Below are positions 20,994-59,176 of a stretch of DNA of 64,000 bases, piece by piece. The notes below the pieces were generated by a model, which was given only the letters and a program-made list of their open reading frames with translations, was not told where the DNA came from and made no database searches. Positions within the stretch are counted from its first letter, which is position 1. Each line of letters opens with the position of its first letter. The DNA comes from Bacillota bacterium (GTDB lineage: Bacteria; Bacillota; JAAYKD01). A program made the position numbers and the translations under genes. Where the stretch lies: assembly GCA_963666425.2 (NCBI GenBank), contig OY762825.2:1824001-1888000 (forward strand). Direction: 5' to 3'.

Positions 20994-21020
20994 AATTGAC
21001 TTGGAACAGGAGCCCATAAA

Positions 21021-21125: not shown

Positions 21126-21129
21126 GTAT

Positions 21130-27558: not shown

Positions 27559-27605
27559 TAACAATCAATGCTTTGAGTTTAGCTCATGGCATTGATTGTT
27601 TTTTT
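27559..27605 (+). terminator. Rho-independent terminator
   Basis: ACAATCAATGC...GCATTGATTGT plus long T-run. Confidence 0.85.
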
Positions 27606-27914
27606 ATTTCAGCTCAAGCTTGTCAGTGGACCGAAATTCGTTAAATTTATCTTGGAACCGGCAGTTTAGAAGAAGGATTTTTATTCATGGATATGTAATA
27701 TTATCCGCAATGATTGTCACGATTTGTGACTTTAAATTGTCTGAATAGTTAGTATACTGAATTTTAGCTAACGATAATAAACAGAGTATTTTATGATTGG
27801 ATCAGTCGTTTCGGCACAAATGCATTTTTTCTTAAAAAGGAAATGATCGTTATGAGAACAGAAAAAAATCACGTCAATTTTTTCTTCGGCAATCAAATAA
27901 AAGGGGGTGTTTTT

Positions 27915-30900
27915 GTGAAAAACAGCAGGAGATTTGGCTTTCGTAAAATACTGGCACTGCTCTTGGTGCTGGCGCAATTAACGGGGTTAACACCCGGAAT
28001 GTTGGTCATGGCACAGGAGACGGAAACACCCACACAGGCGGAGGCTGTACAATCGGAGACAGCTTTGCCTGATGATACACCTGCGTTGACGGATGCTGAT
28101 GCAGCCAGCGCGCCGGCGCAGAATGAAGCTGCTGCAGAATTGACGACTTTGCCGGAAGCGCCGGTCACGCTTTTGGAAGGTCCTCCCGGCGGACCACCCA
28201 GCGGGCCTCCCGGTGGCGGTACTCTACTGACGGAAGGGATGGCAACCGAAGCCAGTCCGGTGGCCATCACTGATCTTTCCAAAGCCTTTGCCTTTGCCGT
28301 CATGATGCCTTTTGCCACACAAACTGAGTTGTGGTTTAGCCTCACTCTGGCGACCGATACTGTTTTTAGTATCACAGGTGCTGCCTCCGGTATGAGTTTT
28401 GCTTATTTACATGCCATCGAACTTTATCAAAATACGAGTGCCAGCAAGGTGGATACAACCTTCGCCTCCGGCGTGCTGACTTCCAATGCTGTGCTTACTG
28501 CCGGATCTTACCTGATTAAACTGAGAGCATCGGATGCGGCGGGCGTTCCCAGCGGAGCGGCTATTCCAAGCATTCAATGGATGCTGAGCTTTACAACCGG
28601 CAGCGCTGCCAATGTTTTAGCTGAGGGTTCTGCTACCAACCAAAATCCGGTTACCATCGCGGATATTTCCAAATCCTACCTTTTCAAAGTCGGAACCTAT
28701 GCCACACAGCCCAGTGATTTGTGGTTTGCTTTCGCGCTGCCCGGTAACGGCAGTGATATAGCCTTGACGATCACAGGATCCGATCCGGCCAACAGCGGTT
28801 CTTATTTGCACGCGATCGATGTTTACAACAGCTCCGGTCAGCTTCTGCCAGCCAGTTTCGCGGACGGGAGTCTGCAAGCGGAGATTGCCACCAATGCGAC
28901 CTACAAAATCAGGCTGCGTTCCTCTTCTTTGGATGGTACCGCGAGCGGCGGCACAATTCCGGCGATGGATTGGCAGCTGGCTTTCCAAATGGCAGTGATT
29001 ACACCACCTGTGCTGAATGATGCCAATCCAGCCTCGGCGGACAATCCTGCCGTGATCGCCAATATCAATAAAACCTATACTTTTTCGGTGGGAACCTATA
29101 CCACGCAGCCAACCGAGTTATGGCTTAGTTTCACGATCCCGGACGGGGTCAGTAATAAGGAATTGACGATAACCAGTAATTATGTTACTTGGATCGGGTT
29201 TTACCTAAATTCAGTTGAATTATATGATAATTCACAAACGTTGGTTGTATCGGGTGGGATGCCTGCTCATGTCAGCAGCGGGAATTATAACTTAAGGTTA
29301 CGTCCGTCGGATTATTCCGGTACGGTAAATGGTCAGGCGATCCCAACCTCGAATTGGACGCTGCAGTTTCAATTGCTGACGACAGACCCTAATGTCCTGG
29401 CAGAAGGGTCTGCTACCTATGAATCACCGGTTGTGATCGGCAATATCGAGGCAGATTATGCTTATTGCGTGGGTGACTATAGCGTACAGCCAATGAAAGT
29501 ATGGTTTAGCTTTACGATTCCGCAAGGAATCGAGAACCAGAATTATGCCATTCGTAATGCCGCCGGCGACCCTTTCTCCGGCTACAGTCAGTATGCAATC
29601 AGCTATCTGGCGCTCTATGACGGTGCAAAACAGTTGATGGCAGAGAATACGGGAGAAACCCCGCTTATTTTTGCGGCTTTGAGCAGCGGTACTTATTATC
29701 TTGCTGTGGGAAATCAAATGCGTTGGGGACCGGAAGCCGGCGGTTTCATGGAAATCCAACCTGCCAGTTGTAAAATCAGCCTTACTCCAGCGCTCGCTTC
29801 ACCAACTTTAGCAACCGGGTCTCCTGTCAGTGGAAGTTATGCCACAGCACAAACCGTATTTATCAATGTTCCTTCCGGTACGCAGGTGATCTATTCCAGC
29901 AGCAGCGCCAATCCTTGGGAAGATGCCAATGCAGTACTTTACCATGCCGATACCGGCATTACGGTCAGTGAGACGGCAACGCTTCATCTGGCGGCGGTTA
30001 TTTATGATGGAGAGACCATTACCAGCTACAGTAAACCGTTTGGCCTTGTCTATTTGATCGATGAGTATGAACTGACCAGTGTGCGCTCGGAGGTCACGCT
30101 CAGCCCCAACGGAACCAATTACTGGGCGATCGACACGACAGCAACCGGAGCCGGCAATTATGCTTTTTCTTTTGACATGGTCAGCACAGGTTATAGCCAG
30201 ACGATTCATTGGGGGATTTATAACGCCAGCGGTGAACAAGTCAAATACATTATGGCTGCCCGTTATTATGAAGATACAGAAATCCATGAGGTAATCTATT
30301 TGGCTGCCGGCTTCTATTACCTGCAGATCGATTGGCCGGGCTACAGCACTTGTCACCCCAGTATGACGAAAAGTTTGGATGCTATCCCGATGATTAGTGT
30401 GGATGCAGGCAATTATACAACGGCACAAACGGTCTTACTGACCCTGCCGGTCGATGCTCCGGCTGGTGCTGCCATCTATTACAAAATTGATCGCTCTTCC
30501 TGGGTGGATCCTTACTATGAAGCAAAACTTTATAATGGAAATCCGCTGATGATCCGGGCGGAAGGCACGCTATATGCCTATATTAAGGACGATAACGGTC
30601 TGGTTGGACCCGTCAACAGCAAAACCTATACCTTCAACTATACAGAAGGCGCCGAAAGTAAAACCTATAATTCTCTGATTGCCGCACCTGTTTTTAACTT
30701 AGCGAATAACAGCAGCCAAGCGCCAGGAACCGAATTAACCGCCTCAGCGGAAGGTGGACTTGATGTTTACTACTACATTAACAAATCGGCGGATTCTCCG
30801 AATTTAAATACTGTTTATCTCCAAGGAACAGAATATAACGCAGCGATTATTCTGGCTGCGGAGATGCTGAATCCCAATTCCTGGAATGAAGAGATACAGA

Positions 30901-33900
30901 TTTTTGCTGTTGCTTTAGATTCATCTACAGGATTGATCAGTGAGGATGCTTATGTCTATTTAACACTGATTACCCCCGGCCCAACTTTCACACCCGCGGC
31001 TGATCCGACTGCGGTCACCGTACTAGCAGAACCGGCGTTTGTTAGCATTGCGCATGAGACGGCTGGTACCCTATATTATAATCAAAACAGACCAAATTAC
31101 GATCCCTTTTCCTGGGGTTACGTATACAGCAATCCGATTGAAGTCAGCACCAGCATGCTGATTCGTGCGCAGTTGAATATGGGAATAGAAAATAGCGCAA
31201 TCACAGAGGCAAGGTATTTGGTGACAGCCAGTAAGCAATTACCGCTGGATGCCTATGTTTCTGCTTATGGCTTTAAAAACTATACCAACAATTATCATAT
31301 TACGGCAACTGCGGCTGGAACTTATGTTTTATCTGTCAATGCTTCCTATCCTGTCACGGTTTATAATGACACGAAAACAGAAGTCATTGCCAGTCGGACT
31401 GAAGGAACGGCTGACTTGCGCTTTTACCTTCCGGTGGGAACCGCCCGGGTTGTAGTGACCTACCCTGCCGATGTTGCTGAAACAGAATATTATCTTTACC
31501 TGACCCGAATTGTGGCGGAACCTGTGCTTTCTCCGGCTCCTTCCGGAACATGGCAACCGAAGTTATCACTGAATTTGTCATCCTCAGACGGCGATACGAT
31601 CTGGTATTATGTCGGAGAAGTTTTTATTTGGTATACCAATGATCGTTATCCCGATGCCAGATGGCAGTCCAGTCCAACCGCTGTCACTTTACCCGAATTC
31701 ACCGGAGGATATGTCAGATTATCCGCCTACTGCAAAGCGGCTGATGGTAAAACCAGCGCGGTAATCAATCAGCTCTATCAAATTGATGAAACACCGCCTA
31801 CACTGGATGCGGCAAATAATGGGCGTTTTAAATTCAACACAGATAATAATACTTATTCCTATTCCAATATCGGTTCTGCCGGAGCGACTTTGTACAGAAC
31901 CGTTTATGTAAATATCAACGGTGCGACTGACGCTGCCAGCGGGGTGGCAAAAGTTGAATATTACGTTTCCATCGACGGTGGAGCGAGCTACACTGCCTTA
32001 GGCGCAGTCAACCGCACTTCGATGTCGGAAGCAATTCCCAATTTTGCCTGGGATACCACAAATACGACCGGCAACAAAAATACAGATGTCCGCTTAAAAG
32101 CAATCTTAACCGATTTCACCAGTCTAAAAAGTGCAGTTTCGGTTGCGGAGGTTACAGATGCCTACGCCTATTCCTTTACCATAGACAATGCGCCGACTCC
32201 TGTTCCGACAGATTTTACGGTCTCTGCCGGTCCGGGCAAGATTACCCTGAATTGGACTGCTGCAGCCTATCAGTATGCCAATGTCTATCGTTCCACTACC
32301 TTAGCGGGTCTTTCTGCTGCTGTGGAACCGTTTTATCATGGTTATTTCTATTCTGCTGAGAGAAGTTATCTCGATTACTTTTATGCGGCAGCAGATACGG
32401 CATTGGTCTATTATTATGCCGTGACAACGATCGACAGCAGAGGAATCGAAAGCAGCAAGGTTGTTTGCAGTTCACCTGTTTCTCCGCTTGCCGACACCAT
32501 TGCACCCGATTTATATCTCTCGGGTGCAGGCAGTTATGTCAGCCTTGCCAGTGATTTTTATTATAATGCCACGGATAATATTGCGCTGGCTGCTCTGGAA
32601 GCGACGCTGACAGCCGAGAACACTGCGGTGACAACCATTGTCGATCTTGATTTTACCGATCATCGAACGACTGCTTATGGTTATATTACCAATGACCGGA
32701 TGGCGGAATTGGGCTTATCCGGTGGCGCTTACACAGTTACTCTGACAGCGACAGACAGCTATGGCAACCAGTACAGCGAAAGCAGCAGTTTCATCTATGA
32801 TATTACACCGCCGCTATTGCCGGCTACGCTGACCGCCGTTTCGCTGGCCGGTAAGGTCCGCTTAGCCTGGACTGCTTCAGTGTCAACGGATGTGCAGTCT
32901 ATCAATATTTACCGCAGCACCGCAGCGGAGGGATCTTTCGATTATTATACTTCGGTTGCCGGTGATCAAATCAAATTTGATAATTATGACGCGGGCAATG
33001 TCGGAGTCACCTTCTATTATAAAATCAAACTGTTGGATCATGCTTATAACGAGAGCGTTTTCAGTGAGATGGTCTCGGCCGCCGTGGGTGATTTCACACC
33101 CAGCATGCGAATTGCCGCTCAGCCGGTAATCGGTCGGACCACAACGATTTATTTCAGCGGATTCCAGCCCTATGAGACCATTGATTTCTATCTGGATCAG
33201 TCCGCCACGGCATTTGATACCGGTTACAGCAGTTATGAGACCGATACAGAACAGGAAGCGCAGCTGGCGGTTCCATATGACATGACCGGCACGCATACAG
33301 TAAAAGCAATCGGCCGCACTTCGGAAAAAATTGCGCTGCTCCGCTTTACGGTCGGCTCCTATGCGCCGAGTTTTACTTTATCAGCCGGCAGTGTCGCTGT
33401 TGGCGGTAGTTTAAACTATTCGATTGTCGGCTATGCCGATTACAAATATGTTTATTTCTATCTGCAGCCGGATGATGCGGGTACGGAGTATGGTCACTAC
33501 CTTACCTATCAATATTATAGTCAAACAGAGATCAGCAATTCTTTCCAAATTCCAGCCGATACGTTACCCGGGATTTACACGATTCGTGCCGTTCAAATCG
33601 ACAGCGGCTTAACTGCCTATGCCACGGTGACGATTACTGCGCCGCAGGTCAGTCTGGTCATCAATGACTCGTCTCCCACGCTGGGACAATATGTCTACTT
33701 TACCGCCTCCGGATTCCTGCCCTATGAAACGGTTCGCTTTTATCTGGCCGATTTGCCTGGATATGCACAGCAAAGCGGTTATACCGGTCAGGCGAGTTAT
33801 TCTGTGCAATTACCTGGTTCGATCACGGGCGGCAGCTTTGTCACTTTGGCGGTGGGACAGACAAGCGGCTTGGCGGCTGAACTGACGGTTCCAATCAGCA

Positions 33901-51900: not shown

Positions 51901-54900
51901 AGGGCTATGGCACAAAATTACTAAATCTTTATACATCGGGAATCAGCTGGTTCAACAATTGGATCGGCAACACGCTTGATGATTATATCAATACCGCGAA
52001 AGATGTCTGGAATACTTACTCCGATGCCAAGAAGGGCAAAGCCGGCGTGGAAGCGATGGCGGATTATGAAGTCAAAGCCAATCAGGCGCTGGATACCCTA
52101 GGTAAAGCGGCCAAATTCATTTCGGATGCGGTCAATACGAAGAGCAAGAGCGAACGCACCTCCCTGACGACGCAAGGCAAGGCGGCTTTGGAAGCAGCTC
52201 AAAGCTTAATTCAGGCAGCCAGCGAGATTAAGACGAAGAATATGGCGGTTTTTGAATCGATCGCCAGCGGTTCCACCAATGGTTGGATCGGCGGAGAAGT
52301 CGATCGCTATTATCTCTCGGCAGCCAATGCTTATGTCAACGAAGTTGAATTTGCCGTGCAGGAAACCCTAAAAATCATTGCGGCGCAGATGCAGGCGATC
52401 GTTGCGGTCAATGCGTTCGAAGATGCAGCCGAGGGAATGAAAGCTTCAGCGGAAAATATGACCAAGGTCACGAAGGAAGCGCAGCAGGTGCTGGATGCAA
52501 CCAACAACATGCTGAACAATGTCGGTTATCAGCCGAACCAGTCGGTGATGGATCAGGTCAAGAACTTCCGCAGCTCCAGCACCGTCGTTGATTTTGCCAA
52601 GAGCTGGCTGACCAGTAAACTGACGATTGTGGACATGGCGGCGCTGCAGAATATTTCCAAGACTACACCGACGCTGGTCAAAAACCTGGGCAATCTGGCC
52701 ATTGCAGTCAAGACTGCCCCTGAGGAGGGATTCAGTAACGCGGAAGTAGCAGATTTGATTTTCGAATGCATCTTCCCCAATTCCACTGAGGTTGCCAAGG
52801 AAAAATACGCCTACTTCTATGATGAATTTGACGCATATGCTCCGGCCGGCGGCTCCAAAACGGCAGAATATTCTATCTATACGCTAACCCAGGCGATTAA
52901 GTTGAGCAGCACGAATGTCATCGATTTGGATGCTTATGAGAAAGCAATCAACCAATTGGCTACCAGTAAGACAACAAACAGCCAAGCGGTAATGAATGCT
53001 GCGGTATCATCGGCAACCCGTAAGAGCAATGTCTTTAACATGCTGGAGCAAACACGGGCTGATCTTGCGCTGATAGGGGAGATGATTCAAGGCTATCTTG
53101 ACAATGACCTTACCGCAACAGCCTACTATCCTTCCGGTCAAGTCCTGGATTACCTGAAATCCCTGAATACGCAGTTAAAGTCGATGTATGCGAACCCCAA
53201 CGGCAGCCCTATCCCGATTACGCGGGTCGGGCGCTACCGCAACCTCTGGGTTTATACTGCCGATGGCATGGATCTGGTGCCGGATCAGATCACGCTCTTT
53301 GAAGTTTATCAGCTGCAGCAGGAAGTCGACGCTTCCATTGCGGAAGGATTCGATGCCATTTATCAGCGTCACATTGTGAACATGATGAAAGATATTGAGA
53401 CGAGGTTAACCTTGGCCAGCACAGCCTTTGCCTTTATGGGCAGTGTTTCGGGTGCCTCCGGTTCCCTTTCCGCCATCGCAGCCACGGCCGCTCAGATGAT
53501 CAATACTTCTTCCTACGTCACAGCGCTGGATTCGCTCGATGCGACCATCCTAACCAAACTCTCCAAACAAATCGGCGAATTGGCTGTTAACACAACTCTG
53601 ATGGTCAATAAAGAAACATCCATTGCTTCAAATTTACTGGATGTTTTCAATACGCTGGAGAACTGGCGTAAAGTCGATCCGGAATTACCGTTGACCGTCC
53701 TGTCACAGCAAGCCACGGATGTGGCGCTGCAGGAGGGTTACACCGAAGGTCAAACCACTGTCGCAATTTCCATCCGCAACGAGCATACCGGTTCGGTAAC
53801 CATCGCTCCCACTGTGGAAATTTACGATAGCTATGGCTTGGTGAATTCCGTTACTTTGGCCAGCCAAACGCTGCTGCCGGGTCAGACCGGTCAATTCAGC
53901 GGTTTGGTTGCAGTGCCGCACAATGCTTTAAGAGATGCCGGCGGCTACATTGCGGTCTTTACCTTCGAAGCTTCTGAAGCTGAGACCATGACCATTTCCC
54001 CGACTTACGGGCCTTACACGGCTGCCTTCAATGCCCACAGGGCGGCAGCTTTAGCCCAGATGAAGAGTGAGACGGCAGATGCCGTGCAAACCTCACAACC
54101 GCTGGGTGGTTATCTGGCTGGCAAAATTGAGGCGGTTATGAACGGTCAAGTGGTGGAAGTCGCTGAGGTCGTGGACAGTCAAACAGTCACGATCAGTAAA
54201 TCAGCCGGCACGATCCTGCGTATTTTCTGCGCCGCTATCAGCGGCAGCGGGGTCAGCCTGAGCGTCAGCGACAGCCAAGGGCAGCCTGTGAGTGCTTTTG
54301 CCGATCTGATCAATCCAGCGGATTTCGTTTTAATCAGCGATCCGGCAGCCGGAATTTATACGGTGACGGTGAGCAACGGTGCGGCAAGCGAACAGGGCTT
54401 TGCGCTGCAGGTGGTGGAACATCCGAATTACGGCACGGTTGCCGGTATCTATACGCAGTATACCAACGTTCAGGCAGCACAAAACTCAAGCGGCGAATGG
54501 CAGGCAACCATTCCGATCAACCTATATGAAACCGGTTTGCTGCATGATCTGACTGGAATTACCTTCACGGTCAGCGAATTAAGCCTTCAGAGCGATGCGG
54601 CGATAAAAATCGTCGGCAGCGAGATGACGATTCAGAATGCGAAAAATGAAGTGCAGAGTCAGCCGTTTACCATTCCGGCCGGGACTGGCAAACAGCTCGC
54701 ATTGGTGATCAAACCGAACCCGGACCATGCCGACGGCATCTATACCGGCAGCTTAAGTATTCATTTGACGGCGGAAGCGTTTAATACCGGTTATTCAACA
54801 CACAGTGGCTGGACTGCAAACGGGGATGGAAGTGATACTTTAATCATTCCGCTTGCTTTGAAACTGGATACCGCTGTGCCGAATGCGCCCAGCTTTACGG

Positions 54901-56933
54901 CAGAAGTGAATGCCGCTGCCGCCAACACCGTTACGATCAGCGGCACGGCAATTCCGGGAGAAAGAATCTATATTTATACAACAGAACCGGGCAGTGAGCT
55001 GGTAGATGCAGCCGATCAGGTTTATGCTGTGCTCACGGCGGATGCCAATGGCAGCTATACCATGGATTTGGTCTTGGAAATGACGGAAGAATTCTTATCA
55101 GCAACCAGCGGCAGCCTGACCCTGTATGCCAAAGCGGCAGCAGTCAACGGCGTGCTGAGCGAGGCCAGTGCAGCGGTAAGCGTCAACATCGATTATTATG
55201 ATACCACCGCCCCGCAGATCACCCTATTATCCCCCTATGCCGGTGTGGAACTAAGCAACCCGGTCAGCCAAATTCGCTTTGAAGTTTTCGATGGTGAAAG
55301 CGCAGTCGTTGAGGAAAGCATTCAAGTGGATGTCAATGGCAGCGGTATGAACGCTGCCTGGAACCGCACGGAGAAACTCTACGAAGTGAATCTGGCGACA
55401 CCGCTGACCGGCGGCACCAATAATCTGCGCATCAGCGCGGAGAATGAAGTAGGTTTGCTCGCAACGGAGACGTATGATGTAATCCTTGGCGATGTCATTA
55501 CGGCTGTGTTCACAGTAATGGAAGCTTCCACGCCGATCGCAGGAGCTACCGTGAGCATTAACGGAGTAGATTTGACAACCGATCTCAACGGAACCGTTTC
55601 CACCGAGCTTGCGGCAGGAAATTATACGTATACAGTCAGCAAGACCGGTTATCTCAGCGTGAATGATTCGAAAAATATTCAGGCGGATGACCGCAGCATC
55701 ACAGTTCTCTTACAGAAATCTGCTAACATTACCTATACCATCAGCAGTGCTGCGAATGCCGTAGCCAATGCCAAAGTGGAAATCAAAACCAAAGCGGCAG
55801 TGTTGGTGACCTCGGGTTATACCAACGCCGCCGGTCAACTGACACTGCAGCTGCCGCTGGCAACCTATGACTGCACCATCAGCAAGGTGGGCTACCTCAG
55901 TCAAACCGCCGAAATTGCAGTGACCCAGGATGCCGCAAAGGCAGTCAGTTTGGCGAATGATACGACGGCCAACTTCCTGGTGACCATCAAGCTGCAAAAT
56001 CAGCTCAATACGGTGGTAGAAAAAACGGAAGACAGCAATCACCTGAAAGTCATGCTGGGAGCAGCAGAGTGGATCGTGACTGGTAATCAAACCGCACAAT
56101 TGCTCAGCAATGGCGACTACAGCCTGATCATCAGCGCGGATGGCTATCAAGCGGTCACCCTGCCGGTCACGGTAGCGGGTGCCGCGGTAACCGAGACAGT
56201 TGTTTTAATGTCTGCCGGTGCTGCGATTAATTACACAGCAGAAACGCTCAACTTAGCGGCAGGTTATCAAGCCAATACCGCAGCGGATTTCAGCGGAGTT
56301 GCGGTAGCCAGCGGGGCGAATTTTGCTCCCGGCTCGCTTCTCTATATCAAACAAGAAGCAACCGGCGCAATTGTTCCTCTCAAGTCGCAGGAACGGCCGA
56401 GTGCGCCGGCCAGTCTGGCTGTCAGTCAAACAGCTGACAATACGGCAACGGTTACCCCAATCGCCGGCGCAGAATATCGTATCGACGAGGACAGCTGGCA
56501 GGATACGAATGTCTTCTCTGCGGTCAGCAATTTCACAAGCCATTCCTTTGCCGCTCGAATCAAGGCAACCGGAACTTCCTACGCCTCCTTAGCAACAGCA
56601 GCCGACGCGCTGATTCTCTATCCGCAGACGATTTATACGCGGGCACTGGAGCTTGATCCAACCGCCCTGACCACGCAGGTGACGCTGGGCAACCACTCCG
56701 GAGCAGATGCCAATCTCATGTTGGTGATTGCGATTTACAATGCCAACGGCAGAATGTTGGAAATGAAGACGGAGAGCGGTATCAATTTGGTCAATGCGAC
56801 GGAAGTGGAAAAGGTGATTACGTTCAAAGCACTGCCGCAGGGCGGACGCTGCAAAGTCTTCCTGATCGATACGCTCAGCAGTTTACAGCCGCTGGCCGAC
56901 AGCAGCGAAGGCAGTATCAGTTTGGTTGGATAA
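27915..56933 (+). CDS. Giant (~9,672 aa) secreted multidomain surface protein (PPC-like, Fn3-associated, FN3, Ig-like, PKD, CARDB, carboxypeptidase-regulatory-like domains, helical insert)
   Basis: Uninterrupted 29-kb ORF; GTG 27915 after AAGGGGG; Sec signal MKNSRRFGFRKILALLLVLAQLTGLTPGMLVMA; FN3 motifs (LxW...YxIYR...YxD...YxYxV), DTxAP Ig junctions, two PKD (WDFGNS, WDFGDG), CARDB (PDL.V..I...E....NN). Confidence 0.95.
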   Translation: MKNSRRFGFRKILALLLVLAQLTGLTPGMLVMAQETETPTQAEAVQSETALPDDTPALTDADAASAPAQNEAAAELTTLPEAPVTLLEGPPGGPPSGPPGGGTLLTEGMATEASPVAITDLSKAFAFAVMMPFATQTELWFSLTLATDTVFSITGAASGMSFAYLHAIELYQNTSASKVDTTFASGVLTSNAVLTAGSYLIKLRASDAAGVPSGAAIPSIQWMLSFTTGSAANVLAEGSATNQNPVTIADISKSYLFKVGTYATQPSDLWFAFALPGNGSDIALTITGSDPANSGSYLHAIDVYNSSGQLLPASFADGSLQAEIATNATYKIRLRSSSLDGTASGGTIPAMDWQLAFQMAVITPPVLNDANPASADNPAVIANINKTYTFSVGTYTTQPTELWLSFTIPDGVSNKELTITSNYVTWIGFYLNSVELYDNSQTLVVSGGMPAHVSSGNYNLRLRPSDYSGTVNGQAIPTSNWTLQFQLLTTDPNVLAEGSATYESPVVIGNIEADYAYCVGDYSVQPMKVWFSFTIPQGIENQNYAIRNAAGDPFSGYSQYAISYLALYDGAKQLMAENTGETPLIFAALSSGTYYLAVGNQMRWGPEAGGFMEIQPASCKISLTPALASPTLATGSPVSGSYATAQTVFINVPSGTQVIYSSSSANPWEDANAVLYHADTGITVSETATLHLAAVIYDGETITSYSKPFGLVYLIDEYELTSVRSEVTLSPNGTNYWAIDTTATGAGNYAFSFDMVSTGYSQTIHWGIYNASGEQVKYIMAARYYEDTEIHEVIYLAAGFYYLQIDWPGYSTCHPSMTKSLDAIPMISVDAGNYTTAQTVLLTLPVDAPAGAAIYYKIDRSSWVDPYYEAKLYNGNPLMIRAEGTLYAYIKDDNGLVGPVNSKTYTFNYTEGAESKTYNSLIAAPVFNLANNSSQAPGTELTASAEGGLDVYYYINKSADSPNLNTVYLQGTEYNAAIILAAEMLNPNSWNEEIQIFAVALDSSTGLISEDAYVYLTLITPGPTFTPAADPTAVTVLAEPAFVSIAHETAGTLYYNQNRPNYDPFSWGYVYSNPIEVSTSMLIRAQLNMGIENSAITEARYLVTASKQLPLDAYVSAYGFKNYTNNYHITATAAGTYVLSVNASYPVTVYNDTKTEVIASRTEGTADLRFYLPVGTARVVVTYPADVAETEYYLYLTRIVAEPVLSPAPSGTWQPKLSLNLSSSDGDTIWYYVGEVFIWYTNDRYPDARWQSSPTAVTLPEFTGGYVRLSAYCKAADGKTSAVINQLYQIDETPPTLDAANNGRFKFNTDNNTYSYSNIGSAGATLYRTVYVNINGATDAASGVAKVEYYVSIDGGASYTALGAVNRTSMSEAIPNFAWDTTNTTGNKNTDVRLKAILTDFTSLKSAVSVAEVTDAYAYSFTIDNAPTPVPTDFTVSAGPGKITLNWTAAAYQYANVYRSTTLAGLSAAVEPFYHGYFYSAERSYLDYFYAAADTALVYYYAVTTIDSRGIESSKVVCSSPVSPLADTIAPDLYLSGAGSYVSLASDFYYNATDNIALAALEATLTAENTAVTTIVDLDFTDHRTTAYGYITNDRMAELGLSGGAYTVTLTATDSYGNQYSESSSFIYDITPPLLPATLTAVSLAGKVRLAWTASVSTDVQSINIYRSTAAEGSFDYYTSVAGDQIKFDNYDAGNVGVTFYYKIKLLDHAYNESVFSEMVSAAVGDFTPSMRIAAQPVIGRTTTIYFSGFQPYETIDFYLDQSATAFDTGYSSYETDTEQEAQLAVPYDMTGTHTVKAIGRTSEKIALLRFTVGSYAPSFTLSAGSVAVGGSLNYSIVGYADYKYVYFYLQPDDAGTEYGHYLTYQYYSQTEISNSFQIPADTLPGIYTIRAVQIDSGLTAYATVTITAPQVSLVINDSSPTLGQYVYFTASGFLPYETVRFYLADLPGYAQQSGYTGQASYSVQLPGSITGGSFVTLAVGQTSGLAAELTVPISSAIPGITLPAIVQPGSVFTVSGSDFTPYSNVKLLVDGVEKTTVYSYEGNVSINYSFADTAAEGRHAIELLDTSGSKAGGSVVLLRPSLTLTLSAEPTLGEDLTLIATGFRNNETVAFTMNGVAQGNAVADASGIAALTIHALDVTSSSYFFTAAAVSGSVTKGWRSNGPDNELSIAYTGAMQPDVLFHFTVAQLAEGEAIRVYLNHQLYALNPAVTAAADGTASFSVTLPAGYSSDSLNLTVMGETNSLWQTATVPVHQTTPVLTVTPSSPTAGSVLDFSVSGFAPGETAALWFNAKPVASAAADGSGAAVLSYTPDIAAIAGDYPVVVAGSRSNHYLKKTITLNSYVFTVNAPATADPGSRVTLAASGLVEGETLHLLFDQTCISGSGIIAAAGSAALDYTIPPYLAAGNHSIRFVLAKSAVLIEKSIYITDLTPQLAASQSGTETKASLNLSGFLPGEGVLVYFDQRDVTANTTTAEGSSSFVISETGALTLIYNFPASITSGDHSFAVIGKASQRAAYSTLAVEVTGQRLTVANSEGRAEGKPGDLLTLHADGFTASVDVSVLFGEINLTPANHTTDAIGAYSATIVLPLGTAEGLHAIQIVAASVSELAQTTLRVDTTAPAVPELRATPAKRQITLAWDKSADVDTTSYLIYRKLSTENADSYVLTDTLDAAVNTVTHSLTEGSHPLAVDVNYHYIIKARDRLGNLSVASAALTAALLPDTAAPVLEYMGNPYAGYRNGFYVLQGSAHFTPTISDDRQASTVLLEYSKTGTNYTALPAVSLTYQGQSYYSGLFTFRGDITLDTLAITNQPNFGDGLYTIRLSVTDAAGKTAVRTQQYYIDNTKPAAPTNLAAAAGPKMVKLTWNYGEISDVNYFLLQFGPDLEHLTTYYLSASTRSYDLVNLLPATEYIMQLAARDDVNNISDAVTVRATPIIDTEKPILPLDTISPAANSRISKNLNLQLKATDNVGLSRFLLSIAPFGSTEFTSIDPAEINSYIYSNIQYLYLENLSYQGNYTLRLIAVDSADLQSDPVEITYQFDTQAPQLTALTATAISGGIMISWAKAADADLYFYYLLRKAPGETDYSYYRYISPSYYAQTSGLIAYLDYAVTAGETYAYKISAYDDLNNSTNPAEATAVSAQPGAFNLTLSLTPTQDVKPGAVLSLTATGLSPYESAVFSIDGLEIFTAYANEKGNLLYDWSYIKNTTSGEHTLQMQSSSSNQLKSVNFTAVATKLAAPGNVNAAAGIMNISLSWDAVGAAYGYQLYRKADEGDYLLLVDKIYGRTYTDYAVAKDIVYSYQVAAFDRYNAIGEKSIEAIAKPDPDQIAPEIAVFVSNRDGNLLTLVATVSDDIRLAKVDFAYKPAGTDDSAYQMIESVSISGSKKTAAASCSFDTSALTQGNYTLRAIVWDGANNQSTPRTLSTTISTSLPHAPQNLTAVAGQMRIALRWEAPGVIEEPIARYNIYRKVGEADFVLLSTTTLTNYTDLAVGLATAYTYQVKAVNVFGYEGPEVRMTTPVTALADTSVPVISGFAPAANSRLGGQINMSVIASDNVAVKQIDFFVVTANGLLTLGRSETGSISFNSVNYQTEGDLVIKARVRDAAGNQAEQTVTYKVDNVAPTAPLATAASGELSIQLTWSLPLMPTDLSYYNVYVLANNTTPEQNTTPPVAKVTTLFYNYKVGTTASFYITAVDSLDNESIASNIVTATPGTDRTAPVILSLTPNNQAIVRADTNVRADATDNVAVNSYLFEVIPMLQDTDTGSLKIMPAAAWTELSLQPTTPTIKTGSFVWNTQDSIITAEGLQARYPDGYYTLRVTAKDMIGNASLKTEVVKVANHPPIAPDGLRVDAGEWRLMVSWKPMSGSDVAGYKVERQIEGESGFTEVAETTSNVYIETGVSPLSLYSYRVAMINDLGNLGPWAAISNQRALEETSTPSILSMSPLQDQRFNSALNLKILAQDEVAIEQIKLSYYRIGDQSSGEIPAEAVYTEIAVLSGASIVYGNVETSENDVFGTDCYTAAYRWTTEALAEGLYALKAVAYNKGNQTAFIVKKYYKDTQPPAAPGGVTLTDPGIGQTLNLTWTSGADVLRYEIYRSTNAEAVFTYAEPAGYLKLPATLSPTFSDTGLTDGMTYYYHIVTVDAAGNVSNPSSRVSGTPTAKSDLGIQAIYTDPAVLILGRNNSLKASMRNDGTARATGVVTFYYFDGTSDIAVGSVNVDYAANTGGETSLVWLAPLTLSASVTVKATVTTNPGSDDISAENNQFTRSSIATNQPPTAVITLPAEPYESGFLLSFNANASSDVGGRIVSYAWDFGNSKKAEGAAATSQYTLPGEYTIRLTVKDNNGAETTAVQTIIVGDKRPDLYVDSIRWTPSETKEGDVVTITAVIGNKGFGNAALGFLTGFYIDNQYMGYSKCDVNLNNISLARGETREVSFNYVAAAGVHVVKVVANDILDTLKETDKGNNNRSAVLSNQQISFADVGVESIVWVPDGTVFDTQQAFAYRTVIKNHGSASAANFGVSLYIDDEYRGRQMVPNLAVGAEMTLNYYVAPAVGIHKVEIKVDDLNPVLIEENTTNNNANLITEDFTVIYPEITVGNIIWKPTETTLTEGTSITFEAKLINNSTINITKNFLVHVAMDGRVFKTITVYGLKAGEVKDVLTKWSASSGEHSFKVIVDAKKAVIDPDTTVEKSITIPKLSILYPNLHISNVSYSPLSVETNKMVSFLVSINNQSVATAFKRFNIGLYVDGKAVAGSTIDGIRGYSTVPVVINWTPETAGLHTIQILADSFGELTMSAATEGIRRSWTTSLQVSEALVLKTNPNKEAQDEDFMAVLYTSGDGFIPLSASLRHASISSQNLGPDEDASVSYTLKKGSVLVSGFEGQMAFNSSNRQFEYQLPITTELTTGTYTLEFLGSCGTEILSSICNIMIVKETTVTLETNKDTYLLGETIRVSGRMTVGGQPVANERVVLDFQLQPRLTDPLRGYDAKGNEIMMIWQAEEIVFAVTDLNGNYEYKFTPFTGEAGDWTILAFAYQNALGGGAPPKEVKVWGMAASPASLTLVATKNSQFSKEIKFRHAAPNYAEGDPLTSVSAILVATALNNGVSATIDTSAMARSLAPGAETGVILNVSAGLNCDDTATYEIVFSSAQGATCKTRVTINLRPATPIPVTDVKSISIGVNPADSVSRIVTVTNKGKGYLDGLKITLPGSIPWVTAGSIGSTRLAPNESTTFTVEFSPGVGVALGQYQDKLVVSDATGKFYANVALSAEISSAKTGGISFRVTDDVGTKVGNADITIISKEPYTSMAGGVETQYYPNFTTRTDANGVAQFYEKPLGDYDLVVMAAGRKKFVSQCSVMPSTGAPFMDILLQNEPISIEWTVVPTTIVDEYEIKLELTFGAHIPVPAFGFNPPWVNIPKEVNEPIVVEANVVNTGLIAITDVVASVVRANKSETGISIIGGGYLGEIGAHSSAKIRLQVQPGVYQLLFSKNAAGNPLNYIKFEGTYVSFDSDTGLPIDPAPVITGVLPLYNPSETSVTLQVRLPEENAKVVEEEVKLPEGQMEELRYIAPAGGNRDDLLKPGADSAYEIVQLTLSQKATLERQAFDATLKITNGYPEYALQNLRVDVTVTDADGKDVTNKNFVIATGINGLTDLDGNDSLAAGKNMTATWQIIPGSDLGGTSVTGKLYYAKALISYYVNGRLVQTQTEGVEITIVPQPKLTLNYYVPHTVLSNTPFKLAVKVSNSGYGEAKNLIIDSGKLEISSNQSGLLTDFEILGSSFGSTTGSNFRLEFGNIGPAVYSETTDLITNQVTGSWTPTEVSGYWLVRWNLPVEAEENPYEGEFRDFKATLTHKDYKGVQLNPLIVGVTTSIIGKEDVLADLNADGALAVVNEGNTGFPDFLMNLVSGLRIPIFVPDSVETSVSYETGGNYLQLKSAKPTAALDYNSVRYQIIMLPAPEGCGNISAVKRSLSADGSNPSSLSFSNYWKDFGNIYIVDQIPVSYDASGSRVFLDSWYTIEFGSGVILGDLGYSRFVYTLAAPGEEGGIPIGVEGTGSYIKDAVYYDTGIYPDQGENDLTLRVLLDNRSKNVENGSIRFSVIDTTIPLGENQTIFNAEVAFVNLQPYITQYVSCSSWVPVKGGVYQIKAELLSGGEATGRFVTSEAVVNSLPYGNAGADIANAVVLQPVRFDASRSYDRDGYITSFVWDFGDGESGYGLTPTHTYLKSGSYKVKLYVMDNNLSTTWPPKLVGSALGGEPDPATVTEQNEFSVMQITVLENRPDLFVQTIEFSESTPAENSVFTVTATLQNGTSEGTAGGLTATPAPFLVGFYLDDVYRGYVRVEDAITVNNTKEVSFDLTMPAGGTAHKVSVIANDIGKYIEEADFDNNRLDQVINGTQTDFADLAVENLQVSAISGDTVQWHAGITVQAKVKNLGSAAAGAFKIVAYANDTLIYSALVDELAVSGEENISFPWLPETSGDYQLRLLADGPLSTVVEMVEDNNSQTQTIKNLNVTYADLTVQNVRTSLSGSIVPQGTNVVLFANILNQGSAANRTASKAYFYVNNRFIGAAEFGKTEALAAGASTTISYIWKNPDIAAEEILVIVDPENKVLESNEANNTGSYYFSSPLTVTAAQLHLVDLVTNTTAVQYGDSVTTLVKVKNSGDRAITTPFATALYVNNRKVGMVTTDAIGIGSQVELSFTWKADQLPTGSYLLRAYTDSEAKLNLTDRSQTYKSAVLSVGHSLVLTPVSSAAAYSLGEASHVSLGVASSAASWSPLGDAAVSVQLYSVSEGAEPVLTAVGEPINLVYDPAAGTYQGVVTSPAAAGSYRLRFNAVKDLLTATTETDIVYTNAFQISLSNATEQSYTIGQSITAAGTVTDANGAAIPDAAVTISVIGEETWQFSGRTDANGTYSIAVNLPTDCGGAYTMKASASIAGVKKQTASIVFFIDGLYLALNSKVTIVQGYDQMLAGFVTNLGVTAADNISLVVSGLPAGLTIEPLLTLNATNIAAESSQEIQLKLSAAETLAAGVYEITLTAGNASHVLTVSVVAAEAKYSINIIGEVESGGDGLRKEALTMSLRQGEMKTSVIQVTNSGTANLTGLTVDCDLPFVRFSATPVDGYLIKPVNKGYTIRDAEGRASIVVAVSPSNFTQTGLYEGSITLTSNAGVRKIPIVISVGSEQVASLTYEVRNDSNTPLQDATVELSGVVQQKDPVNFSGKTDVDGRITFSNIPAGAYQLTATADLHSTLSAAVDLPALNDRLPQIITLTKQPMVFGFEAAAEDSMRSSSTKSVGYDSVVYKAEQLAASTEPQLQPNLPADEQQFWYISGKILNRLSIRNPAAPITLTDLSASDSKLKDVTLEVVSTSKNLPLNAFLLKGESGYTPVRYIGDLAAGQVIDLIWSLDIDRLFVMAKVAAVGSTGEFQLTFDGTKVSQAMVDAYVKANDPLGEGSLQLVAGSYTAGGNSFNVKVTAGSDQTYRTPTDRIPLYFGNQVYLFDATIKASGTRSDNGATVETLIPVRVRYLAPDYEIWGSGKQNANQEDSGSQTTATDAYDENPGLKQEIQLEAAFPSVNGQTAKGNYSQNFLKEMGYGLPEVPEEATKNADLDFGFSSGAGFAEQVVGLKLNLTNTSSTSPMTDLSIRLLLTDNSYDAEGNLIKGGSPVYPAVNLIASATGENAPVVDGYGITLSELNLGETLKLNYQLKLDEVQDIYSAIAEFDPSIAKLLQNKSSGKIYARFLYEYTQDGKQQSVMSSVREFEVKAKPKVYISYDLEAYQSDPNRFTLTAYVTNLGEGAAEGVYVSAPIMPETEYKFVVTSGNSTKGTNLGDGKVQLGTIQPGETEKVYFNLIRIEVTAAQKGTKLSLGKLAELPAMPVKSEIAGNLIVAPMKMEAMNTLRAHENFLSMQTELDNLQVNLEKVVDKTVSELARSILDQYDYARILTGAVGITKVYEMTSGVANLIGWIKSIAELPAKLKGAFTSADDELKEVLNGKVLTPDEYKLFAATQQAYQGYGTKLLNLYTSGISWFNNWIGNTLDDYINTAKDVWNTYSDAKKGKAGVEAMADYEVKANQALDTLGKAAKFISDAVNTKSKSERTSLTTQGKAALEAAQSLIQAASEIKTKNMAVFESIASGSTNGWIGGEVDRYYLSAANAYVNEVEFAVQETLKIIAAQMQAIVAVNAFEDAAEGMKASAENMTKVTKEAQQVLDATNNMLNNVGYQPNQSVMDQVKNFRSSSTVVDFAKSWLTSKLTIVDMAALQNISKTTPTLVKNLGNLAIAVKTAPEEGFSNAEVADLIFECIFPNSTEVAKEKYAYFYDEFDAYAPAGGSKTAEYSIYTLTQAIKLSSTNVIDLDAYEKAINQLATSKTTNSQAVMNAAVSSATRKSNVFNMLEQTRADLALIGEMIQGYLDNDLTATAYYPSGQVLDYLKSLNTQLKSMYANPNGSPIPITRVGRYRNLWVYTADGMDLVPDQITLFEVYQLQQEVDASIAEGFDAIYQRHIVNMMKDIETRLTLASTAFAFMGSVSGASGSLSAIAATAAQMINTSSYVTALDSLDATILTKLSKQIGELAVNTTLMVNKETSIASNLLDVFNTLENWRKVDPELPLTVLSQQATDVALQEGYTEGQTTVAISIRNEHTGSVTIAPTVEIYDSYGLVNSVTLASQTLLPGQTGQFSGLVAVPHNALRDAGGYIAVFTFEASEAETMTISPTYGPYTAAFNAHRAAALAQMKSETADAVQTSQPLGGYLAGKIEAVMNGQVVEVAEVVDSQTVTISKSAGTILRIFCAAISGSGVSLSVSDSQGQPVSAFADLINPADFVLISDPAAGIYTVTVSNGAASEQGFALQVVEHPNYGTVAGIYTQYTNVQAAQNSSGEWQATIPINLYETGLLHDLTGITFTVSELSLQSDAAIKIVGSEMTIQNAKNEVQSQPFTIPAGTGKQLALVIKPNPDHADGIYTGSLSIHLTAEAFNTGYSTHSGWTANGDGSDTLIIPLALKLDTAVPNAPSFTAEVNAAAANTVTISGTAIPGERIYIYTTEPGSELVDAADQVYAVLTADANGSYTMDLVLEMTEEFLSATSGSLTLYAKAAAVNGVLSEASAAVSVNIDYYDTTAPQITLLSPYAGVELSNPVSQIRFEVFDGESAVVEESIQVDVNGSGMNAAWNRTEKLYEVNLATPLTGGTNNLRISAENEVGLLATETYDVILGDVITAVFTVMEASTPIAGATVSINGVDLTTDLNGTVSTELAAGNYTYTVSKTGYLSVNDSKNIQADDRSITVLLQKSANITYTISSAANAVANAKVEIKTKAAVLVTSGYTNAAGQLTLQLPLATYDCTISKVGYLSQTAEIAVTQDAAKAVSLANDTTANFLVTIKLQNQLNTVVEKTEDSNHLKVMLGAAEWIVTGNQTAQLLSNGDYSLIISADGYQAVTLPVTVAGAAVTETVVLMSAGAAINYTAETLNLAAGYQANTAADFSGVAVASGANFAPGSLLYIKQEATGAIVPLKSQERPSAPASLAVSQTADNTATVTPIAGAEYRIDEDSWQDTNVFSAVSNFTSHSFAARIKATGTSYASLATAADALILYPQTIYTRALELDPTALTTQVTLGNHSGADANLMLVIAIYNANGRMLEMKTESGINLVNATEVEKVITFKALPQGGRCKVFLIDTLSSLQPLADSSEGSISLVG
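28224..29790 (+). repeat. Four tandem ~125-130-aa N-terminal repeats of the giant protein
   Basis: Units start LLTEGMATEASPV, VLAEGSATNQNPV, VLNDANPASADNPA, VLAEGSATYESPV and share (L/V)W(F/L)(S/A)(F/L), an L/V-Y strand and a Y-x-I/L strand. Confidence 0.85.
33090..35760 (+). repeat. About ten tandem ~90-aa beta-sandwich repeats with a GFxPxExV-like signature
   Basis: SGFQPYETI, SGFLPYETV, SDFTPYSNV, TGFRNNETV, AQLAEGEAI, SGFAPGETA, SGLVEGETL, SGFLPGEGV, DGFTASVDV. Confidence 0.8.
40380..51550 (+). repeat. Ancient tandem duplication of a ~1,900-aa PKD-CARDB-core supermodule
   Basis: Colinear motif pairs offset by 5.7-6.1 kb, e.g. RPDLYVDSI/RPDLFVQTI, FADVGVESI/FADLAVENL, TYLLGETIRVSG/SYTIGQSITAAG. 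Confidence 0.8.
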
Positions 56934-56956: not shown

Positions 56957-56994
56957 ACAACAGGCAGGTTCTGCATGCAGAACCTGCCTGTTGT
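56957..56994. terminator. Perfect 38-bp palindrome, probable bidirectional terminator
   Basis: ACAACAGGCAGGTTCTGCA|TGCAGAACCTGCCTGTTGT between the convergent giant gene and ugtP-like gene. Confidence 0.8.
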
Positions 56995-58297: not shown

Positions 58298-59176
58298 TCA
58301 GTAGATTTCTTTGGCGTCACGGGGCAGTTCGTGAATATGACGGACATAAGACCGACTGTTGCGCGCTAATTTTTGATCATAAGTAAAATGCAGCCGTGCC
58401 GCCACTTCTTGGGCGGTTTCCTCGAACAAGTCCATCATCGTAAATAATGCCTGCCAAAGTGCGGCTTCCTCTCCGCTGGGGTAGGTTGCCAGCAATTTTT
58501 GCCAGGTTTGCGGCGGTAAGTAATTCTTCAGATATTTACCGGATTTACCGGTCGAAACCGCGAAATCGGTTTCTGTACCGACCAGCCAGTTCAGCATGGT
58601 GATCAATTTGAACTTCGGATATTGAAAACAATCCAGGGCATAAAGCAATTCATTGCGCCAAAGCCCTTTGGCGATATAAGGCGCCACCCAATAAAAATCG
58701 ATACAACGGCAATCAAAAATTGCCTGCGTTGGCCGCTGCACGAGATAATCGCCGTCATTGGCAGCCGGGATTTTCGGCAGCAGCGCATCTTTATCGAGCA
58801 GGACAACGGTCAGACTGTCGCTGCCGAATTCTTTTCGCATCGCCGCTTTGGTCAGGATAGAAAGATCGATGCGGTTGCCGTCGGTAAATTGCATCAGCCA
58901 AGCATAACGCTGTGAGAAATCGATGGCTTTTCCCAATATTTGATCCAATTGATCCGGTTCTTCCATGATCAGGATCTCGCCAAAACGGTCGAGCCAAGCA
59001 GGATCGGCTAAAAAGGAAGCGGTCTCCGTTACCACATAAACGATATCAAAATCCTGAAAGATATCTTTCGGAACCTTGACATTCGCCCGGGAGCCGTTGA
59101 GATAAACCGCACGAATTCTTTCATCGTTTCTGGCTGTGCTGAGAAGCAAATCCAGCATTTTCTGTTCATTGCGCAT
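58298..59176 (-). CDS. ant(6): Aminoglycoside 6-adenylyltransferase (ANT(6), AadK/AadE family)
   Basis: DERIRAVYLNGSRAN, DIFQDFDIVYVV, LMQFTDGNRIDL, VLLDKD, YIAKGLWRNE, STGKSGKYL; ATG 59176 after AAGGAG. Confidence 0.92.
   Translation of the reverse strand: MRNEQKMLDLLLSTARNDERIRAVYLNGSRANVKVPKDIFQDFDIVYVVTETASFLADPAWLDRFGEILIMEEPDQLDQILGKAIDFSQRYAWLMQFTDGNRIDLSILTKAAMRKEFGSDSLTVVLLDKDALLPKIPAANDGDYLVQRPTQAIFDCRCIDFYWVAPYIAKGLWRNELLYALDCFQYPKFKLITMLNWLVGTETDFAVSTGKSGKYLKNYLPPQTWQKLLATYPSGEEAALWQALFTMMDLFEETAQEVAARLHFTYDQKLARNSRSYVRHIHELPRDAKEIY

Follow-up and report, generated by a model that had tools for sequence, protein, structure and literature searches.

How can a protein of about 1 MDa reach the outside of a bacterial cell, and possibly be held there, when its gene has no export or anchoring gene beside it? 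The question is raised by a 64,000-nt stretch of a Bacillota bacterium genome (GenBank assembly GCA_963666425.2, contig OY762825.2, positions 1,824,001 to 1,888,000; below referred to as the window), which contains on its + strand a single open frame, 27843..56933, of 9,696 aa counted from the first ATG. An earlier reading of this DNA, made from the letters alone and called here the sequence-only reading, had described its product as a giant secreted protein. The gene is real and intact, and it encodes what is probably a giant surface fibre, of an unnamed family with inverted conservation, swappable address modules, a helical block that is still unplaced and an unnamed terminal domain. The giant protein is no orphan: its family, conserved but rare and so far uncharacterised, consists of giant proteins of the surface type in anaerobic Bacillota, and it probably acts as a long adhesive fibre that is exported by the Sec pathway and tethered at its C-terminus.

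That the frame is genuine follows from comparison with other genomes. Five related genomes were searched with the first 2,976 aa, and collinear matches were found in frames of 9,593, 9,589, 9,334 and 9,882 aa, all four of which start with signal-type N-termini, and in a fifth frame of at least 8,880 aa, which is cut by the contig start. Residues 2190-9696 are matched by a database protein of 7,511 aa (P0002), which over 7,507 aa differs by 60 substitutions and contains no gap (99.2% identity); a further protein (P0003, 6,459 aa), truncated where its 21-kb contig ends, is collinear as well, with 43% identity across 5,939 columns. Concerning sequencing runs, run DNA was compared over 27800-47799, and 47800-56933 is covered gap-free by P0002. 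One public-run contig, from the probable source, spans the compared interval without any difference, which is not independent evidence; in a run from another study, 27800-33408 and 34409-47799 are both represented (identity about 99%), no frameshift is listed, and the sole length change seen in the same gene there is an in-frame replacement of 96 by 111 nt at 29174-29271. This replacement falls inside the third of four repeats near the N-terminus (tip repeat 3, aa ~444-477) of a ~99% identical strain and constitutes strain-level variation of the tip.

Against this evidence, an assembly artefact or a dead gene is hardly credible as an explanation of the frame, although the near-identical database protein starts only at aa ~2186 and the independent run has its contig break at 33408-34409. 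The two positions coincide (aa ~2186 corresponds to about nt 34398), and P0002 is for this reason most simply taken as a truncated gene call, which would produce exactly such a start; the independent run matches on both sides of the break, no stop occurs across 29 kb, and the four intact frames of 9,334-9,882 aa in other genomes are collinear. An assembly chimera, which the sequence-only reading had named as one outcome that would overturn it, is contradicted by the same orthologues and by the gap-free copy. In an RNA metatranscriptome run, contigs of 300-1,177 nt with 90-96% identity were found over 37096-46812; they give a weak hint that a relative is transcribed, since DNA carry-over is possible.

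Within the open frame, the GTG at 27915 is the better start, compared with the ATG at 27843, because a ribosome-binding site, AAAGGGGG at 27900-27907, lies 7 nt before it and because the N-terminus KNSRRFGFRKILALLLVLAQLTGLTPGMLVMA, followed by QE, aligns with the starts of the orthologues. The signal region is conserved in two of these (G001 and G002), and aa 36-54 form the sole 19-residue window in the whole protein with a mean Kyte-Doolittle hydropathy above 1.8. Cleavage would probably occur after VMA and would leave a mature chain of 9,638 aa (1,028 kDa, pI 4.5, 0.2% Cys); Ser makes up 8.7% of the protein overall. An acidic, low-Cys composition with a single signal-type segment would fit a surface protein. 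The gene is framed by two hairpins: the upstream one (27560-27600, followed by U7) has a folding energy (dG) of -24.2 kcal/mol and a z of -3.8, none of 200 shuffles being as stable, and rests on RNA folding, as the terminator pattern (consensus) scanner caught the downstream hairpin only. An Rfam scan of the 5' region and of the whole window revealed no riboswitch or other family, the only matches being chance miRNA-like ones on the terminator hairpin. The description of an intact 29-kb gene between two terminators with an ordinary, N-terminal Sec signal, as given by the sequence-only reading, is thus confirmed by the open frame, the ribosome-binding site, both hairpins as folded and the single hydrophobic segment. 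The G+C content is 0.46-0.54 in the gene (28001-56000) versus 0.40-0.46 in the flanks at 14-28 kb; this could stem from an Ala/Thr/Gly-rich composition and not from foreign origin.

The family to which the protein belongs was delimited with two of its parts, the helical block and the beta module that follows it. When the helical block (aa 7880-8640) was compared with 1.84 billion representative proteins, 19 of these matched at E <= 0.001 and eight at E <= 1e-30; six relatives match all or most of the block at ~30% identity (E 1e-74 to 1e-89), and these six are large proteins or fragments of large ones (1,757-5,082 aa). The pattern W[RK][KQ][VI]DP[EPA]LP of the post-helical module, searched in 185,579 species with one genome each, was found in 33 loci, all of them in Bacillota. 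The carriers are metagenome-assembled genomes (MAGs) of rumen Oscillospiraceae and from anaerobic digesters, Dethiobacter alkaliphilus, Thermincola ferriacetica, a Syntrophomonadaceae MAG, Acetivibrio alkalicellulosi DSM 17461 with four loci and Pseudobacteroides cellulosolvens ATCC 35603 with one. For 30 of the 33 loci, no end of the frame is reached by the upstream edge of the available DNA, mostly 10 kb before the match; these, too, can be counted as giant genes. Two loci with frames closed upstream (L013 and L031) were considered as short forms of the family and rejected: their frames start inside domains and lack a signal peptide, and they look like broken or frameshifted assemblies.

Several features recur together in this family. 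The core (the equivalent of aa 5430-5960) carries the motifs GISIVGGGYIGEIPAH, ATLERQAFDATL and GEFRxFKATLTHxDYKGVQLNPLI; the ~720-aa helical block is followed by the WRKVDPELP beta module and then by CarboxypepD_reg units, which were scanned in eight relatives; and the full-length members are collinear at about 9,300-9,900 aa, with an N-terminal signal. The distribution over the classes of Bacillota is patchy. Within the window's own class the core is found in five of ten genomes of the collection (its own genome counted), namely in four of the five other genomes of the same family, the one lacking it being 80% complete, and in none of four genomes from two other families of the order. Close relatives were also detected in metagenome contigs from landfill, wastewater and aquaculture, with word shares of 0.23-0.41 (47 pieces with identities of 90-99% in the landfill run); habitat was not read from runs with small word shares. 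A full-text literature search, which did not extend to supplements, returned no account of this family.

The chain consists of roughly 80-90 diverged beta-sandwich modules and one helical block, and the modules that could be recognised are limited to fn3, immunoglobulin (Ig)-like, PKD, CARDB and prealbumin-like types. Their order (Table 1) as recovered by Pfam tiling, NCBIfam and self-BLAST agrees with the one listed in the sequence-only reading. The tip repeats exhibit pairwise identities of 27-44% by self-BLAST and only weak Pfam matches (GH123_N_2, GBD_T9SS_assoc), with an ESM Atlas lead to PPC at 0.93. In the following variable part, CHB_HEX_C_1 is found at aa 854-920, with a further weak match from about 854 in the tiled scan, and the GFxPxE units correspond to GxPGS_dom of NCBIfam (at about aa 2032-2074 of P0001). 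The two PKD-CARDB supermodules are paralogous (26% identity over 571 columns, E 2e-42), and matches in a sequence search of the PDB were confined to the PKD and CARDB domains. Tandem Repeats Finder detected no array in the gene, hence the protein repeats are old and diverged; together with the low identity among the tip repeats, this bears out the remark that they are not near-identical.

The conservation profile, taken from an alignment of five full-length sequences, is uneven. Identity is at its lowest in the first ~1,200 aa, amounting to 9-55% with two close orthologues and mostly staying below 25% with two distant ones. The most conserved core, aa ~4325-5925, shows identities of 57-86% to the close orthologues (G001 and G002), 37-73% to G004 and 34-67% to the Dethiobacter orthologue, whereas in the C-terminal ~470 aa identity drops back to 31-48%. 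Over residues 5430-5960, identities of 46-78% are seen in 25 loci, including some in which the post-helical module is only 26-36% identical to that of the window, and an alignment of 26 core sequences contains 88 invariant columns. A conserved middle of this kind is the opposite of what would be expected of a spacer; being the most conserved part, the middle is not a loose stalk, and its strong conservation, like that of the helical block, suggests a function going further than that of a spacer, e.g., in self-association or mechanics.

AlphaFold2, run on the core alignment, predicts with moderate confidence (pLDDT 69.9) an all-beta chain comprising some four or five sandwiches. Foldseek returned Ig-like arrays only (E 3e-6 to 1e-3, TM <= 0.18), among them HYDIN-type proteins of the ciliary central apparatus, integrin legs, Gram-positive pilins and AgI/II C123, and VIA-align gave MSP/PapD-like and generic Ig matches with Z <= 8.7. 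The idea that the core hides an enzyme was dropped, because the fold searches return such generic arrays only. The THxDYKGVQ string was considered as a Thr-Gln ester-bond site as in Cpe0147; its spacing differs from HxDxxDxxQ, which we take to be the motif of such sites.

Concerning the known routes of export and attachment, the giant protein contains no SLH, dockerin, RTX or RHS domain detectable by Pfam. The sortase-anchored class requires a C-terminal LPXTG, a hydrophobic segment and a basic tail, all of which are absent; LPxT-like strings occur internally only (aa 2741 and 6484), the C-terminus (...SSEGSISLVG) has no hydrophobic window, and the one sortase match in the genome (C1:1970673) is not adjacent, lying about 83 kb past the end of the window. 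For the type I secretion system (T1SS) RTX class, there is no RTX-type Pfam family in the protein and there are no T1SS genes in the flanks; for the class of serine-rich repeat (SRR) proteins with accessory Sec, there is no SRR region, and the genome has a single SecA_DEAD match. The cellulosomal class is represented neither by Dockerin_1 in the protein nor by a cohesin in the genome. None of the 45 SLH matches in the genome falls within C1:1851768-1880930. The 29 flanking open reading frames (ORFs) include no sortase, T1SS, Sec or other export or anchoring component, and no neighbour gene family recurs over the 33 loci beyond close kin with general synteny. The absences reported by the sequence-only reading, i.e., of adjacent T1SS, accessory Sec or sortase genes and of LPxTG, SLH, RTX, dockerin or RHS motifs, hold on all these counts, and its notion of a single-gene extracellular apparatus is supported as well, with no secretion or anchoring gene recurring in the window or in the 33 related loci.

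Where such a protein might be attached is indicated by its relatives. The last 700 aa of the giant frame were scanned in 26 of them, i.e., in the 33 loci minus five running off the locus, one stopping 18 aa past the match and one ORF of 985 aa. A recognised address module is found at the C-terminus in 10 of the 26 and varies by lineage: Dockerin_1 in four (L008, L009, L015 and L033), choline-binding repeats (Choline_bind_4) in L010, three SLH domains in L018, Cu_amine_oxidN1 in L030, and CBM_2 with CBM_5_12 in L029, all by Pfam, as well as CFI_box_CTERM of NCBIfam in both relatives tested for it (L017 and L026), accompanied by a C-terminal hydrophobic segment and a basic tail. Because these lineage-specific modules are carried there, the C-terminus is best regarded as the address end, by which the molecule would be tethered. 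In the giant protein and its close kin this place is taken by a domain of ~95 aa (the X domain), which is kept in all close orthologues and in some rumen relatives comes after a dockerin. The apparent lack of anchoring more likely means anchoring through an unrecognised C-terminal domain. A word-based homologue search with the terminal domain (at the 'longer' lengths) gave no match among 230 candidates, and the ESM Atlas returned hypothetical Bacillota clusters only, at 0.90.

In four genomes of this lineage (G000, which is that of the window, G012, G001 and G002) the X domain is found in three kinds of frame, one of which is the C-terminus of the giant protein; in G003 it was found in the giant protein only. 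The second kind of frame comprises 505-1,119 aa in these four genomes. In G000 it is a secreted S8 subtilase of 514 aa with a C-terminal X domain (C1:617835-619388, - strand, locus L043). The third kind, of 3,313-4,222 aa, follows the giant gene at a distance of 6-16 kb and has the X domain right after the signal peptide; in G001, G002 and G012 such frames measure 3,313-3,645 aa and are 6-15 kb away. In G000 it is a secreted SLH protein of 4,208 aa (C1:1896995-1909618; L044 96-12722) about 9 kb past the window, in which SLH is matched by four Pfam stretches, the best at aa 1423-1459. Docking of the giant protein on this SLH neighbour through the shared X domain would be an attractive idea; a complex prediction for the C-terminal domain of the giant protein (A6) and the N-terminal X domain of the neighbour (A5) scored 0.01 against a mark of 0.32, which speaks neither for nor against it.

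On these grounds the following course of events is considered probable. The general Sec pathway would export the protein by means of its N-terminal signal peptide, with no dedicated partner, none having been found in the window or recurrently at the related loci. The C-terminal end would then hold the molecule on the envelope, the X domain standing in place of the address modules of the relatives, and the chain of Ig-like modules would project the PPC-like N-terminal repeats, which evolve fast, from the cell to a particulate or cellular ligand, to which they may bind. By our estimate, some 85 modules of ~100 aa, each contributing ~4 nm, would give the extended chain a length of a few hundred nanometres. 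Of the two functions that the sequence-only reading had left side by side, long-range adhesion and contact-dependent delivery, an elongated adhesive fibre fits the findings best, whereas delivery finds no counterpart in a toxin or RHS cassette among the Pfam and NCBIfam families or in an immunity-like gene next to the giant gene.

Several points weigh against a C-terminally tethered adhesive fibre. L029 ends in carbohydrate-binding modules (CBMs), which are directed to a substrate and not to the cell, so that the C-terminus is not always cell-proximal. The X domain is without a known anchoring role and, being N-terminal in the SLH neighbour, may be an ordinary structural module. A passive stalk accounts neither for the most conserved middle nor for the helical block. 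Furthermore, most other large surface proteins of the genome carry SLH and the giant protein carries none, which fits a released protein equally. Such a protein, exported by Sec and remaining untethered, could serve as a scaffold of a matrix or biofilm, its conserved middle associating laterally with itself into a mesh that holds flocs or granules. The Ig-like sandwiches of the core would suit homotypic contacts of this kind, and the occurrence of close relatives in landfill, wastewater and aquaculture contigs would agree with it; however, the address modules of the ten relatives are mostly cell-directed, and the terminal domain is retained by all close orthologues. A released scaffold is thus regarded as possible but rather doubtful.

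The dockerin and CBM ends of some relatives bear on another alternative, according to which the giant protein would be a scaffold that presents or carries enzymes for the breakdown of insoluble polymers in a manner similar to cellulosomes. Its relatives in the cellulolytic genera Acetivibrio and Pseudobacteroides and in rumen Oscillospiraceae would be in line with this, as would the PKD and PPC-like modules, which are of the kind found in collagenases. Yet neither a catalytic domain nor a cohesin was detected by Pfam in the giant protein, which lacks a dockerin in a genome that lacks cohesins, and a role of this type is therefore considered highly unlikely.

The helical block is the one part of the chain that departs from the beta-sandwich plan. 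AlphaFold2, run with 13 sequences, predicts, again with moderate confidence, a nearly all-helical structure (pLDDT 67.8, pTM 0.56) with helices of up to 72 residues (27-98, 269-328, 607-656 and 677-729) and a few short strands. Foldseek against the PDB found nothing at E <= 0.001. With VIA-align against 48,161 chains, the best match was a designed gp41 mimic (Z 11.4, residues ~157-316 only), the matches being to generic bundles and this best value lying below the tool's own chance level for helical models (about 13). As modelled, the ~720-aa block thus appears to match no solved fold. A segment of ~38 aa between its last two long helices is uncharged and rich in Gly, Ala and Ser. In a window of 41 residues around it (query residues 632-672, about aa 8511-8551), 1-6 charged residues were counted in 10 relatives, i.e., those that cover this window by at least 20 residues, one of them in part only, versus 19% charged residues in the whole block; the four charged residues of the giant protein in this window all precede aa 8522. 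The pLDDT is low over residues 648-674 of the block, and the mean hydropathy of the 41-residue window is 0.25-1.03. In one relative of 4,985 aa (P0028), the helical block has an apparent metallo-beta-lactamase (ComEC-type) insert, its motifs having been judged by eye and not scored.

The uncharged segment between long helices, kept over 10 relatives in a block that is otherwise charged, raises the question of a contact-dependent effector, the Gly/Ala/Ser hairpin of which would enter a membrane as in ClyA-type alpha-pore-forming toxins. AhlC, AhlB and ClyA are indeed among the structural matches (Z 8.8, 8.2 and 7.7), and the apparent insert in P0028 could be counted in the same direction. Yet these Z values are below the chance level for helical models and the alignments concern residues 157-316, apart from the uncharged segment; no sequence match to the ClyA family was found in a sequence search of the PDB; and the mean hydropathy around the segment is low, while nothing past the signal peptide reaches a transmembrane-like threshold. 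Moreover, the block is internal: some 1,100 aa separate it from the C-terminus, and the distal tip is remote from it. Concerning the polymorphic-toxin class, no toxin, RHS or polymorphic C-terminal domain was detected among the families in the Pfam and NCBIfam libraries, and no immunity-like gene follows the giant gene, the next one being a convergent gene for an MGDG-synthase-like glycosyltransferase. An effector of this kind is accordingly judged most unlikely.

A more far-reaching idea combines the conserved parts into one extracellular device, in which the near-invariant middle of ~1,600 aa would be an assembly or force-bearing unit and the helical block, by its conserved uncharged hairpin between helices of ~70 residues, an element inserted into a membrane or envelope, the whole coupling two cells or acting on the envelope of a neighbour. 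Although we rate this as improbable, its consequences would be considerable: the interchangeable C-terminal address modules and the X domain would serve as a docking system, and a single Sec-exported polypeptide would couple, e.g., partners in anaerobic syntrophic or electroactive consortia.

Giant surface adhesins of Gram-positive bacteria include Ebh, SasG/Aap, Bap and the serine-rich repeat proteins, whereas LapA, SiiE and MpIBP are T1SS RTX giant adhesins of diderms, with C-terminal RTX repeats, a T1SS signal and adjacent ABC/MFP genes. The tethered fibre proposed here shares with the latter its size class, tandem Ig-like extenders and a distal ligand-binding region, but it has an N-terminal Sec signal, no RTX and no transporter gene for export nearby. 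As far as the available part of the respective report goes, the giant surface proteins Giant1-5 of Apilactobacillus kunkeei (PMC12863079) and the Gram-positive giant adhesins resemble it in the N-terminal Sec signal, in a very long chain of repeated modules with a putative N-terminal binding region, in being acidic and poor in Cys, and in the part that they are proposed to play in attachment or aggregation. Differences from this group, within the same limits of the source, are that the giant protein is without LPxTG, SRR region and accessory Sec, that its modules are highly diverged with a PPC-like tip instead of a beta-solenoid, and that its chain includes one helical block of ~720 aa, which is non-repetitive, and a middle that is strongly conserved; none of the sequence searches made related it to these proteins.

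Giant proteins are also described, in the parts of the sources available, for Omnitrophota, with numerous transmembrane regions, SecA-like domains and a secretion locus that is conserved beside the gene, and for Clostridia, with RCC1, Listeria-Bacteroides-repeat and YG-repeat domains and in some cases dockerin (bioRxiv 10.1101/2023.11.21.568195), and giant genes for Ca. Epulopiscium viviparus (PMC10756260). Common to the giants of Omnitrophota, other phyla and Ca. Epulopiscium viviparus and to the present family are very large predicted extracellular proteins with attachment-type domains, known mostly from metagenomes; unlike the Omnitrophota giants as there presented, the giant protein has no transmembrane region past its signal and no conserved neighbour, and the architecture of PKD-CARDB and helical block does not appear in those parts of the two sources. 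The swappable C-terminal address modules of the family (Dockerin_1, SLH, choline-binding, CBM) are similar to those of cellulosomal and S-layer proteins of Clostridia, but the giant protein itself has none of them, its terminal domain being unnamed and its genome without cohesin. With the ClyA family, the helical block shares an arrangement in which a hydrophobic, uncharged segment links long antiparallel helices, whereas the similarity is at the chance level for helical bundles (Z about 8) and the block is an internal module of a protein of 9.7k aa.

Giant bacterial surface proteins are common as a class, of which very few families have been studied. The present one has stayed intact at ~1 MDa across several classes of anaerobic Bacillota and needs no dedicated export genes. 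Three of its features run counter to the picture of a drifting stalk with a conserved tip: a variable tip combined with a conserved middle, swappable C-terminal modules, and a helical module without a solved relative. If it became clear how the protein is anchored and what the helical block does, the family could become a model for the long surface tethers of monoderm anaerobes in flocs and granules and on plant fibre, and it could add a new docking domain alongside SLH and dockerin. The positions of all features are given in Table 1.

Table 1. Features of the giant gene and its immediate surroundings (positions in the window; aa, residues of the giant protein)
Feature	Position	Strand	Basis or remark
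Intrinsic terminator of the upstream gene (hairpin and U run)	27560..27611	+	RNA fold
Giant gene	27915..56933	+	9,672 codons from GTG 27915; frame open from ATG 27843
Predicted Sec-type signal peptide	27915..28016	+	basic N-region, hydrophobic core, VMA before QE
Ala/Pro/Glu-rich linker with GPPGGPPSGPPGGG	28017..28223	+	GPPGGPPSGPPGGG in GPPGG linker at aa 113
Four ~130-aa tip repeats, PPC / galactose-binding-like jelly rolls	28224..29837	+	aa 128-665
Variable N-terminal beta modules, mostly without Pfam family; CHB_HEX_C_1 and GFxPxE (GxPGS) Ig-like repeats	29838..35942	+	
fn3 alternating with Big_7/Big_13 Ig-like units	35943..40202	+	aa ~2700-4120, Pfam tiling
PKD-CARDB supermodule 1 (CARDB, PKD, then about 5 CARDB)	40203..42452	+	Pfam
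Most conserved core, overlapping supermodule 1	40815..45617	+	aa ~4325-5925, five-sequence alignment
PKD-CARDB supermodule 2	46263..48602	+	Pfam
CarboxypepD_reg / Big_1 / NPCBM_assoc / SpaA-like sandwiches, then Pfam-less beta modules	48603..51533	+	Pfam tiling
Helical block with long helices	51534..53702	+	aa ~7898-8620
Uncharged Gly/Ala/Ser-rich ~38-aa segment between the last two long helices	53406..53519	+	aa ~8522-8559
Conserved post-helical beta module, starting WRKVDPELP	53664..54422	+	28 invariant columns in alignment A2
Three CarboxypepD_reg / PEGA-like units	55497..56210	+	aa ~9219-9456, Pfam; also in relatives
Terminal ~95-aa beta-sandwich (X domain), no Pfam or NCBIfam family	56640..56930	+	alignment A4
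Terminator hairpin, palindromic 17-bp stem	56957..56994	+	dG -31.5 kcal/mol, z -6.7

The flanking ORFs encode regulators, transporters (TrkA/TrkH, CNNM/CorC, MatE, ABC), acetyltransferases, peptidases, a tRNA synthetase and an F420-ligase-like protein, besides the MGDG-synthase-like glycosyltransferase, an aminoglycoside nucleotidyltransferase-like protein and a chloramphenicol acetyltransferase. Just downstream of the giant gene, the latter (59305-59979, - strand; CAT, E 1.8e-77) is situated beside the aminoglycoside nucleotidyltransferase-like gene (58298-59212, - strand; Adenyl_transf, E 1.6e-109), which is syntenic in the close relatives L002-L004. They are followed by a gene at 60014-63457 (- strand) for a protein of 1,147 aa, the sole match of which is an M14 carboxypeptidase at aa 810-929. 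On the other side, 18559-22668 (+ strand) contains four consecutive, partly overlapping TrkA-N/TrkA-C ORFs and then TrkH, with a DUF4118 histidine kinase and a response regulator upstream. In two related genomes (G004 and G005), a protein of ~550-610 aa with N-terminal helix-turn-helix (HTH)-like segments is encoded divergently upstream of the giant gene (L037 9738-11579 and L038 11266-12915, both - strand), the two being 26% identical to each other; as a conserved partner it was rejected, its homologue in the genome of the window lying about 1 Mb away (C1:867957-869456). Concerning the assembly as a whole, the contigs C3, C5, C7, C10, C12 and C15 of this genome have G+C contents of 0.22-0.63 versus 0.47 in the 2.9-Mb main contig, which, together with a contamination estimate of 6.85%, suggests that foreign contigs were binned with the genome.

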